Positions 16,190 to 18,292 of a stretch of DNA of 27,032 nucleotides are shown here, piece after piece. The DNA is taken from positions 1 through 27,032 of IMG/VR virus record IMGVR_UViG_2695420624_000003. One strand, given 5' to 3'. The stretch is from a virus (Duplodnaviria > Heunggongvirae > Uroviricota > Caudoviricetes). The notes under the pieces were generated by a model that saw nothing but the letters and a program-made list of their open reading frames with translations, ran no database searches and was not told the origin of the DNA. Positions within the stretch are counted from its first letter, which is position 1. Each line of letters begins with the position of its first letter. A program made the translations under genes and the position numbers.

Positions 16190-16512
16190 ACTTTCAGGCC
16201 CCTCTCATGTAACCAGTGGGCTGCACGCAGCCTGGCGTTTGCCTCACCGGCAAGCAGTGCGCGGATAATCCCGACCGCCTCGCTGTCGTCGTCCTTCACC
16301 GCGGTATGAAGAGTGATACCCCGGGCCACGCCACGCTTTATCGTGATGACACCTTTTTTCTCCAGTGCGCGAAGATGCTCCACCGCTGCATTCACCGAAC
16401 GGTATCCCAGCATGGTTGCCACCTCCTGATTGGTTGGCGGAAAGCCACGCTCTTTCTGATAAGAAATCAGCATATCCAGCACCTGCTGCTGGCATTGAGT
16501 TAACGTCGTCAT
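16186..16512 (-). CDS. LexA-type winged-helix DNA-binding protein without a peptidase domain
   Basis: LTQCQQQVLDMLISYQKERGFPPTNQEVATMLGYRSVNAAVEHLRALEKKGVI resembles the LexA N-terminal domain; start overlaps the upstream stop (ATGA). Confidence 0.55.
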   Translation of the reverse strand: MTTLTQCQQQVLDMLISYQKERGFPPTNQEVATMLGYRSVNAAVEHLRALEKKGVITIKRGVARGITLHTAVKDDDSEAVGIIRALLAGEANARLRAAHWLHERGLKV

Positions 16513-17006
16513 TAAGCCCCTACGTAATTCCCTGACAGATACCACTCTTCACCCGATACAGCGCGCTTGCTGCTTTTCCGTAAACACCGCTCACGACGCG
16601 CAAGAAAATTGTTTCGCTCTTGCTGGGAGTGGCTTTCACGGAATGCCGCCATCCACACGGTTGCAGCACGACGGTATAAGCCCCTGGACTCCAGTTCTTC
16701 AGCCTGGCGGGTCAGGCACAAAATCACCCGTGGATCGTTAGTGCCGACATAGAAATTGCGCACAGGTCTGGTTTCTCGAACTGGTTGTGGTTCCGGTTCC
16801 TGCGCTCTCTCAGTCAGGCGCGGGAAATGTCTGCGTGTATCTCCTTCACAACGGTGAGCCACACGCCCACTCTGACGTAACTTGCTTGCTGACTGCAGAA
16901 CGCGCTGCCGTGAGTAACCTGCAAAAGCATCCGCAATGTCTCCGGAAGTACATCCCGGATGGGCTTCAATGAATTTCTGAACTTCATTCAAAAGACTCAT
17001 GATCAC
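16512..17006 (-). CDS. Hypothetical regulator, PerC-like C-terminal region
   Basis: C-terminal RGLYRRAATVWMAAFRESHSQQERNNFLARRERC is reminiscent of PerC-type activators; low certainty. Confidence 0.4.
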   Translation of the reverse strand: MIMSLLNEVQKFIEAHPGCTSGDIADAFAGYSRQRVLQSASKLRQSGRVAHRCEGDTRRHFPRLTERAQEPEPQPVRETRPVRNFYVGTNDPRVILCLTRQAEELESRGLYRRAATVWMAAFRESHSQQERNNFLARRERCLRKSSKRAVSGEEWYLSGNYVGA

Positions 17007-17944
17007 CCCCTGAATCCTGCCGGGATCTGGCTGTAGTCCACGTTGTCGTAACTGGATTTGAAGTACGGGTCTTCGCGTTTTTCGGTGTACGTGCTGACGG
17101 ACGGTGATAAGCGCAGGGAAAGCTCATCCCATTTTTCCCGCAACTTCGACGGGCTGAGCACGTTACGGCACCAGAACGGATCGCGGCTGACGCGGCTGTA
17201 CATCTCGCAGATTTGTTTGTGAGTACGACCATCCTGCACACACATCAGGCGAATTTCGTTTGCCCAGGCTGTCCAGTTCGGTTCTTTGGGACGAACCACC
17301 TCGCCGTCACATTCGGCGGCTTGCTCGTACAGGGCGATGATTTTTTTCCAGAGCCACTGTGCGCAGGTCAAATCATCCTGCGTTCCCCACTGGCGCTTTT
17401 TAGGGCTGAATACAACCGCATCAGGATGGCGAGTTAAAAAATCCTGTTCATCCGTCTGCGTGTCCGGTTGCGAAGCGTCCGGACGAGAAGGTTTTTTATC
17501 TGACGGATCATGTTTTGATTTTACTGACGGATCCCCGCCAGATTCTGACGGGTGAAAACCCGCTTTTTTGCCAGATTTCGACGCATCAAATTTTGACGGG
17601 TCAGATTTTGATGCGTCAGATTTTGACGGGTCAGAATCTGACAGTTGAGAAAATGCCGCTGCCTGAAGCTTCGCAACGTTAAGCTGATAAACATTCGACG
17701 CATTGCGGTTACCCTGGCGACGCGCCTTACGCGTTAACCAGCCTTCTGCTTCCAGCCGTGCGATAGCCGTCCTGACGGTACTCATCCCCGCGCCAATCTG
17801 ACGGGCAATGGTTTCAATTGATGGCCAGCACACACCTTCGTCATTACTGAAATCAGCCAGGCGGGCCATAATTGCCACGCTGGATAATTTCATGCCTGAT
17901 GCAGCGCAACCATCCCATACATAGCCGGTTAATTTAGTGCTCAT
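17003..17944 (-). CDS. Replication initiator (O-like), HTH N-terminus with a repeat-encoded linker
   Basis: N-terminal winged-helix region, central DPSKSDASKSDPSKFDASKSG repeats encoded by DNA iterons, C-terminal domain; sits in the replication position after cro and cII-like genes. Confidence 0.7.
   Translation of the reverse strand: MSTKLTGYVWDGCAASGMKLSSVAIMARLADFSNDEGVCWPSIETIARQIGAGMSTVRTAIARLEAEGWLTRKARRQGNRNASNVYQLNVAKLQAAAFSQLSDSDPSKSDASKSDPSKFDASKSGKKAGFHPSESGGDPSVKSKHDPSDKKPSRPDASQPDTQTDEQDFLTRHPDAVVFSPKKRQWGTQDDLTCAQWLWKKIIALYEQAAECDGEVVRPKEPNWTAWANEIRLMCVQDGRTHKQICEMYSRVSRDPFWCRNVLSPSKLREKWDELSLRLSPSVSTYTEKREDPYFKSSYDNVDYSQIPAGFRG
17521..17650. repeat. Iteron-like direct repeats inside the replication gene (candidate origin)
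   Basis: Repeated units of the form GATTTTGACGGGTCA / GATTTTGATGCGTCA about 15 bp apart, at least five copies. Confidence 0.5.
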
Positions 17945-17953
17945 GACCGACCT

Positions 17954-18292
17954 CTATTTCCCTGAATTTACGACGAAACTGTTCGAGCGGGCTGAAGCAC
18001 TCATGCTCATAGCCTTCGCGGAGGTAGATAACTCGTTGTGTTTCCGGCTCCCAACGAATGACTCTGACGGGCACTCCGTAGTGATCTTTGAACCAGCGGT
18101 TAACTTGTCGCAAAGGACTGTCTCCTTCTGCCGGTTGAAATCACCCACAGCCCACTCAGCAAAGCTGTGGGTTACAATTTCCCTGTCACCTGGTACATTT
18201 ACTGCGTAGCAATACTCCACCTTCGCTTTTCCACCCGGTACAGGAAGCGCAATCAGTTGCGAGCGACGGTAGTGTGTTGTTAAACTGTTCAT
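17954..18292 (-). CDS. Hypothetical early protein (112 aa)
   Basis: ORF between the cII-like gene and the replication gene; same size and position as ymfM of e14 (from memory). Confidence 0.4.

Follow-up and report, generated by a model that had tools for sequence, protein, structure and literature searches.

The 27,032-nucleotide stretch analysed here in full (IMG/VR virus record IMGVR_UViG_2695420624_000003; hereafter, the window) is a lambdoid prophage with ~98% identity, over the 2 kb tested, to the Shigella phages SfII and SfIV and several Escherichia coli phages. Our subject is an array of short direct repeats inside its replication initiator gene, which we read as the probable origin of replication. 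The 313-residue initiator is 98–100% identical to its counterparts in SfII, SfIV and E. coli phages and has a PHROG match, phrog_391 ('replication initiation O-like', E = 1e-135). Its amino-terminal domain contains a winged helix that Pfam assigns to HTH_36 (PF13730, residues 23–70, E = 4e-11), with weaker Pfam matches to GntR, PaaX, MarR and DnaD_N and weak MarR-type winged-helix matches in the PDB; an NCBIfam search of the protein returned nothing useful. A low-complexity linker (residues 96–165) leads from there to a carboxy-terminal part related to lambda O (39% identity over residues 166–277, tblastn E = 9e-18). Across the O proteins of lambda, phi80 and Shiga toxin (Stx) phages, tblastn identity is 35–39% (E 1e-17 to 9e-18), and BLASTP extends the lambda match to 216 residues (31% identity, E = 7e-26), with residues 70–277 colinear with O 78–270. 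The amino terminus of lambda O itself belongs to Phage_rep_O (PF04492, E = 6e-36), a family for which the window initiator gave no Pfam match; with HTH_36 in that place, the protein is thus an O-like chimera and no strict O orthologue. An earlier note, made from the letters of the window, had called the gene O-like, which the phrog_391, HTH_36 and lambda O matches bear out, and the protein has the layout of a sequence-specific DNA-binding amino terminus joined by a linker to a separate carboxy-terminal domain.

Part of the linker is encoded by tandem repeats (Table 1). Five consecutive 15-bp units, read in the gene frame on the minus strand (TCAGATTCTGACCCG, TCAAAATCTGACGCA, TCAAAATCTGACCCG, TCAAAATTTGATGCG and TCGAAATCTGGCAAA), encode S-D-S-D-P-S-K-S-D-A-S-K-S-D-P-S-K-F-D-A-S-K-S-G-K, residues 102–126 of the initiator. 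The unit consensus is TCA(A/G)AATCTGAC followed by three variable nucleotides (by codon, TCA-AAA-TCT-GAC-NNN); a TGA-N4-TCA dyad with the core GAYNNRTCA is formed at each unit junction, and inverted-repeat pairs within the array reach a complementarity of up to 89–92%. Tandem Repeats Finder (TRF) places the array at 17572–17635, either with a period of 15 (4.3 copies, 81% matches, score 86) or with a period of 30 (2.1 copies, 88% matches, score 100), and ranks it as the top-scoring tandem array in the window. With up to two mismatches allowed, the pattern TCARAATCTGAY is matched 27 times in the window, where 9.2 matches would be expected. None of 100 shuffles gave as many as 27, and 12 of these 27 fall within 136 bp (17507–17642).

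Related elements lie beside the array, on the side of the carboxy-terminal coding region. Three dispersed cores were found (CACCCGTCA at 17546–17554; GATCCGTCA at 17525–17533 and again at 17501–17509); the first of them falls within a sixth, detached unit, which an A-tract and a T-tract set apart from the tandem five. Counting both strands, the window contains six copies of the strict core GAYCCGTCA, four of them at the candidate origin and all four on the gene strand. The two exact GATCCGTCAG boxes, each containing GATC, are the sole exact copies in the window and stand around a 14-nt stretch of 86% A+T, itself the core of a 42-bp segment (69% A+T, against a gene average of 47%) that is the most A/T-rich part of the gene and a candidate unwinding region. 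The earlier note had placed at least five copies of a roughly 15-bp unit at 17521–17650 and taken them to encode the repetitive linker. The tandem units agree with this in number and period, its unit GATTTTGACGGGTCA being the plus-strand reading of the same repeat, and the residues that they encode do lie between the DNA-binding and the lambda-O-like domains. Its range stands for the array alone: positions 17521–17566 hold dispersed cores and no tandem units, and the constraint at the DNA level described below reaches ~60 bp further left, to ~17460, leaving the GATCCGTCA copy at 17501–17509 outside the boundary that it had drawn.

Table 1. Features of the initiator gene and the adjoining early operon (window coordinates).
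Feature	Position	Strand	Basis or remark
Candidate origin, synonymous positions conserved	17460–17650		Sliding codon profile, 20 non-redundant loci
Five tandem 15-bp iteron-like units	17567–17641	minus	In-frame reading, TRF, repeat families, inverted repeats
Sixth, detached unit TCACCCGTCAGAATCTGGC	17537–17555	minus	A-tract and T-tract (17556–17566) between unit and array
Two exact GATCCGTCAG boxes	17500–17533	minus	Each with GATC; around a 14-nt, 86% A+T stretch
Moderately A/T-rich segment, candidate unwinding region	17486–17527		Lies C-terminally to the iterons
O-like replication initiator gene, 313 amino acids	17003–17944	minus	Open reading frame; Pfam, PHROG and BLASTP matches
N-terminal winged-helix domain coding region, residues 1–95	17660–17944	minus	Presumed origin-binding domain
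Lambda-O-like C-terminal domain coding region, residues 173–277	17114–17428	minus	Presumed replisome-recruitment domain
YfdN/PerC-like gene, 164 amino acids	16512–17006	minus	Pfam PerC; phrog_1324; overlaps initiator stop codon
112-amino-acid gene, no assigned function	17954–18292		Early operon, between CII-like gene and initiator gene
CII-like gene	18289–18840		Early operon
cro-like gene	18833–19093		Early operon

Fifteen nucleotides are five codons, so the window alone cannot tell an iteron array from a peptide repeat. We fetched 80 related loci, one genome per species, and extracted their initiator genes; 31 of them, from ~15 genera (Shigella, Pantoea, Citrobacter, Providencia, Enterobacter, Buttiauxella, Kosakonia, Yersinia, Tatumella, Rosenbergiella, Erwinia and others), share the same type of amino-terminal domain and are termed type 1 here. 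Compared pairwise, these 31 loci use the same codon for the same residue in 39–57% of cases in the amino-terminal domain, depending on divergence (35% expected from codon usage), and in 87–92% of cases in a 23-codon block of the linker, GFHPSESGGDPSVKSKHDPSDKK (38% expected). The linker excess appears in 10 of 10 disjoint pairs in each of three random sets (Wilcoxon p = 0.002). A sliding profile over 20 non-redundant relatives shows the excess to span residues 99 to ~162, with a peak of 0.93–0.94 over the GATCCGTCAG boxes; codon identity is 0.32–0.57 in the amino-terminal domain, as in ordinary coding sequence, and drops back to 0.38–0.54 in the carboxy-terminal domain. Amino-acid identity in the constrained stretch (0.4–0.8) is below that of the amino-terminal domain (0.6–0.96).

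The constraint can be followed within single units. A position matrix of 171 aligned units from the 31 loci contains 12 informative positions and 3 variable ones. TCA encodes the first serine in 146 of 161 units, and TCT the second in 107 of 131; among serine codons outside the linker, TCA and TCT account for 18% and 10%, respectively. The lysine codon is AAA 107 times and AAG never. The sole free positions of a unit are all three bases of one codon, and a free whole codon beside fixed synonymous neighbours is the opposite of what coding constraint would give. The codons of the boxes are equally fixed in the same loci (GAT 31/31, CCG 30/31, TCA 28/28, GTA 31/31), and the DNA of the detached sixth unit is conserved throughout the 31. 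The number of units ranges from 3 to 9 among relatives, and the array is identical, or nearly so, in the viable phages SfII and SfIV. The codon comparison shows the repeats to be a DNA element of which the SDxSK and DPS linker peptides are the translation, a by-product; it lends weight to the earlier description of the repeats as iteron-like, with codon identities of 0.87–0.92 in the linker and 0.39–0.57 in the amino-terminal domain indicating selection on the DNA.

Relatives outside type 1 carry other repeats in the same place. In a second initiator clade (Erwinia, Mixta and Edwardsiella), the period is again 15 bp but the repeat is another one: TTGACCCCTCAA and its reverse complement TTGAGGGGTCAA occur together in one array and encode DPS and EGS, respectively. 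A third clade, from Serratia, has TGA(C/G/A)GGCTCAC every 15 nt. The GATCCGTCAG boxes are present in all three enterobacterial clades, type-2 and type-3 loci included. More distant HTH_36 initiators, from Pseudomonas, Achromobacter, Pigmentiphaga, Allopusillimonas, Thorsellia and one Hydrogenedentota genome, have tandem repeats of 17 and 22–23 nt directly after the winged helix; these periods are not multiples of three, so these cannot be peptide repeats. They are followed by three to four GAACCGT(C/A)A boxes, which resemble the GATCCGTCAG boxes, are spaced by 10–12 nt and lie in different frames.

Type-1 amino-terminal domains, together with their repeats, are joined to at least two types of carboxy-terminal domain, lambda-O-like and Phg_2220_C, and the junction falls directly after the constrained stretch. 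The repeats are therefore inherited with the amino-terminal domain while the carboxy-terminal domain is exchanged, and each amino-terminal clade has its own repeat. This pattern favours the suggestion of a candidate origin already made in the earlier note. Type-2 and type-3 relatives encode a lambda P homologue directly downstream of the initiator (tblastn E down to 1e-41; Pfam Phage_lambda_P, E = 3e-58), and the initiator family thus forms true O–P replication modules.

Two further observations concern these relatives. Loci L064–L082, which hold the distant HTH_36 initiators (Pseudomonas, Achromobacter, Pigmentiphaga, Thorsellia and others), have two successive repeat types at ~260–520 nt of the gene, the first with units of 17 and 22–23 nt such as ACCCCCGCAGCAGATGC, and look like a family-wide two-part origin in their sequences; the GAACCGT(C/A)A boxes of the distant initiators encode a conserved peptide, RTVIEPSxEPS. 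In the E. coli chromosomes CP178306 and CP178308, the initiator gene is split over two distant prophage remnants (L004/L005 and L051/L055), with residues 1–79 at ~1.19 Mb and residues 79–313, including the complete array, at ~2.44 Mb; a remnant without the gene start and without part of the DNA-binding domain has thus kept the array.

The four iterons of lambda lie at nt 349–435 of gene O (residues 117–145), and those of the window, at residues 102–126 (to 148 with the dispersed cores), take the equivalent linker position in the colinear alignment. In both phages the linker-coding part, midway in the initiator gene, carries an array of direct repeats that have dyad symmetry and are A-rich at the centre, and the carboxy-terminal domains are homologous. 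The moderately A/T-rich candidate unwinding segment of the window is placed carboxy-terminally to the iterons, the side on which lambda has its own. Lambdoid origins, situated midway in O, are made up of iterons and an A/T-rich tract, the number of iterons varying between phages (PMC7466680). Where a lambda-type origin has at least four mid-gene direct repeats with dyads, the window has five tandem and three dispersed ones. The units themselves differ: lambda iterons are ~19 bp long and spaced by 20–24 bp, whereas those of the window have a conserved block of 12 nt and a period of 15 bp. The window also departs from lambda in its HTH_36 amino terminus, its conserved GATCCGTCAG boxes, its lack of a P gene and its moderate A/T richness. 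The parallel with the lambda origin drawn in the earlier note holds for the position of the iterons and for the homologous carboxy-terminal domain.

Because the repeats are conserved as DNA, are inherited with the amino terminus and are placed as lambda iterons are in a homologous protein, we consider it probable that 17460–17650 is the replication origin of this phage, of the lambda type and inside its own initiator gene. Homology and architecture suggest how the step from repeats to initiator binding and origin activity might be made. The first event would be transcription driven by the early rightward promoter, which points leftward in the window. The MarR-like amino-terminal winged helix would then bind the cores, probably in dimeric form at the TGA-N4-TCA dyads, and the bound initiators would assemble a nucleoprotein complex resembling the lambda O-some. 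This complex would destabilize the adjacent A/T-rich segment with its two GATCCGTCAG boxes, and the lambda-O-like carboxy-terminal domain would bring in the host replicative helicase. Two roles are conceivable for the GATCCGTCAG boxes: they may be initiator sites, the most conserved ones, or belong to the unwinding element. Control by Dam and SeqA through the two GATC sites was considered and rejected: where the window has GATCC, distant relatives have GAACC, so GATC is no general feature of the boxes. We found no perfect DnaA box in the window and no one-mismatch box within the initiator gene, the nearest being at 18301 and 18554.

Several points weigh against an origin at this site. Among the large open reading frames scanned in the window, none encodes P, DnaB, DnaC or a helicase or loader domain. 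At 69% A+T over 42 bp, the A/T-rich segment is of moderate richness, and that of lambda is far more extreme. With a spacing of 15 bp, successive sites face almost opposite sides of the helix, an unusual setting for iterons, and the element recognized by the initiator has several candidates in the sequence, namely the 12-nt block, the TGA-N4-TCA dyad and the GAYCCGTCA core. The codon statistics are pairwise, with relatedness only partly handled by the disjoint-pair test, and a scan of viral contigs for lambda O returned copies that were all 99–100% identical, giving no positive control for the codon test. The literature reached contains no report of binding or origin activity in this phage group.

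One departure from lambda is the missing loader. Lambda P had no tblastn match in the window, and the genes downstream of the initiator (PerC-like, LexA-DNA-binding-like, RusA and KilA-N) include no P-type loader; the position of lambda P is occupied by the YfdN/PerC-like gene, which is no P homologue. A YfdN-like gene follows the initiator in many relatives, whatever the type of carboxy-terminal domain (loci L003, L004, L007, L015, L022–L026, L031, L032, L043, L044 and L048). The amino-terminal part of the YfdN/PerC-like protein is winged-helix-like, and the protein might be a replication partner or a regulator. In a phage that has no P, helicase recruitment must use host proteins or an unrecognized partner.

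Constraint at the DNA level shows that the stretch has a function as DNA, not which function, and the array could instead be an initiator-binding regulatory site, used for autorepression, for copy control by handcuffing or for the exclusion of related phages, with the DNA opened elsewhere. Iteron plasmids do use extra iterons for control, and the weakness of the adjacent A/T-rich segment and the lack of a nearby helicase loader gene would fit such a role. We nevertheless regard it as unlikely. This is the sole substantial tandem array in a 27-kb window that spans the early and regulatory region; it is found at the position of the lambda origin, in a homologous protein; relatives carry an O–P module of the lambda type; and it lies in the middle of a gene and not at a promoter, no promoter-like site having been found in 16900–18400.

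Lower still stands the proposal that the conserved stretch is a recombination 'linker', homology that serves the exchange of amino- and carboxy-terminal modules and has no replication role. The junction to lambda-O-like or Phg_2220_C domains directly after the conserved stretch is what such a linker would leave. Recent exchange would, however, make conservation even, whereas the units combine one free codon with fixed synonymous neighbours; amino-acid identity in the linker is below that of its flanks, and the proposal does not predict the distinct repeats found in other clades at an equal period and in the corresponding place. We therefore give it little credence as a complete account; as roles of one stretch, recombination linker and origin are not mutually exclusive.

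A repeat that matters for the protein only, as a flexible Ser/Asp/Lys/Pro low-complexity linker grown by slippage, would account for a period that is a multiple of three, for the simple SDxSK motif and for the 3 to 9 units seen among relatives. It is very hard to reconcile with synonymous conservation far above both the flanks and the codon-usage expectation, with serine codons specific to their position, with inverted units that encode different peptides or with 17- and 22-nt periods in shifting frames. Least credible of all is a synonymous constraint imposed by a second gene that overlaps the stretch or by an RNA, structured or antisense. In its favour, 55- and 60-residue open reading frames overlap the repeats in other frames, an antisense terminator-like hairpin is present and the single strand gives a better fold than its shuffled versions (z = -4.8). 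Of the alternative frames, however, the best is open in 13 of the 31 loci and each of the rest in 0–1 of them, the fold is good because the repeats alternate inverted half-sites, no promoter-like site was found, and no Rfam family matches beyond a spurious microRNA hit (30.7 bits against a threshold of 97) that arises because the repeats are palindromic.

An origin within 17460–17650 can be set beside other origins that rest on short repeats or lie within initiator genes. In the iteron plasmids RK2, pPS10 and R6K, winged-helix initiators bind arrays of short direct repeats beside an A/T-rich unwinding element that carries short repeats of its own, and by analogy the GAWCCGTCA boxes could be the counterpart of the latter. 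Plasmid iterons are unlike those of the window in being usually intergenic, ~17–22 bp long, helix-phased and served by other initiator families, and we found no homology of the window initiator to the plasmid iteron initiators. The lytic origin of P1, oriL, lies inside repL and was located by synonymous substitutions that abolish replication, another origin within initiator coding sequence; the repL protein is unrelated to the window initiator, and the critical P1 element is an A/T-rich region, not iterons (PMC9948254).

Closer in setting are P22 and phage L, which have phage-specific short repeats inside gene 18 that are read as the origin, as in the window: six imprecise repeats of 11 bp in phage L and four of ~20 bp in P22 (PMC8022706). 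Their repeat sequences are different and their partner is the DnaB-type helicase gp12; the phage L origin, like that of the window, was assigned from sequence. The Stx phages 933W and P27 have six iterons against the four of lambda, changes that alter the length of the initiator linker in amino acids (PMC7466680), and the 3-to-9-unit range among relatives of the window resembles this variation. Stx-phage iterons are of the lambda type and bound by a Phage_rep_O domain, and both binding and function were shown by experiment, whereas the array of the window is a candidate.

The lambdoid arrangement itself is already known. The literature reached describes neither these iterons and their 15-bp period nor the boxes or the lack of P, though an earlier mention is possible. 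Genome papers on SfIV and SfI mention the replication module and no origin, the GenBank records of SfII and SfIV have no origin annotated, and a full-text search for the repeat sequences returned unrelated primers only. The stretch supplies a candidate origin of ~190 bp for the serotype-converting Shigella phages SfII, SfIV and SfV, for many E. coli prophages and for the cryptic remnant of CPS-53 type, elements for which the papers and genome records read give no origin. It would also account for the peptide-repeat look of the linker, in which the DNA dictates the peptide, and suggests that synonymous-codon conservation can locate origins hidden in initiator genes. The general picture of lambdoid replication is unchanged; the question raised is how a lambda-O-type carboxy-terminal domain recruits the helicase where there is no P gene.

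More tentatively, and with more doubt than confidence, we propose that HTH_36 O-like genes hold an old, family-wide two-part origin in their linkers, in which a clade-specific array is coupled to a near-universal 9-bp core, GAWCCGTCA, from Pseudomonas and Burkholderiales to Enterobacteria. The core, preserved over a very long time, would dictate the conserved DPS and EPS peptides and not be dictated by them, and the SfII/SfIV group would combine an O-type carboxy terminus with the lack of a P loader. Were this so, SfII and SfIV would use a route of helicase recruitment not yet described for O-type initiators.

The early operon runs leftward in window coordinates, from the cro-like and CII-like genes through the initiator to the PerC/YfdN-like gene, and continues with a gene for a LexA DNA-binding domain, then RusA, KilA-N, DUF968 and Q. 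In SfII and several E. coli phages, the PerC-like and LexA-like genes are separated by one for a DNA adenine methylase (in SfII, positions 2110–2763 of locus L002, set against 16512–16545 of the window); this gene is absent from the window and from SfIV, and the boxes of the candidate origin each hold a GATC. The terminator-like hairpin mentioned above, CGGGTGAAAACCCG followed by CTTTTTTGCC, is on the plus strand, antisense to the initiator gene, at 17549–17562, with a T-run to 17572. It lies between the tandem array and the sixth unit, and its stem is longer in the Citrobacter locus L008 (GAGGGTTTTCACCCTC). One exact extra copy of the 12-nt block, TCAAAATCTGAC, was found 6 kb from the array on the minus strand (23447–23458), within a PAPS-reductase-like open reading frame (22848–23843); we estimate the chance expectation for exact copies at ~0.01, and this single isolated site may be a coincidence. 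Other small tandem repeats in the window are a 23-nt unit present twice at 23180–23226 and a 9-nt unit, TGATGTCAT, present three times at 19511–19537 inside the CI-like repressor gene.

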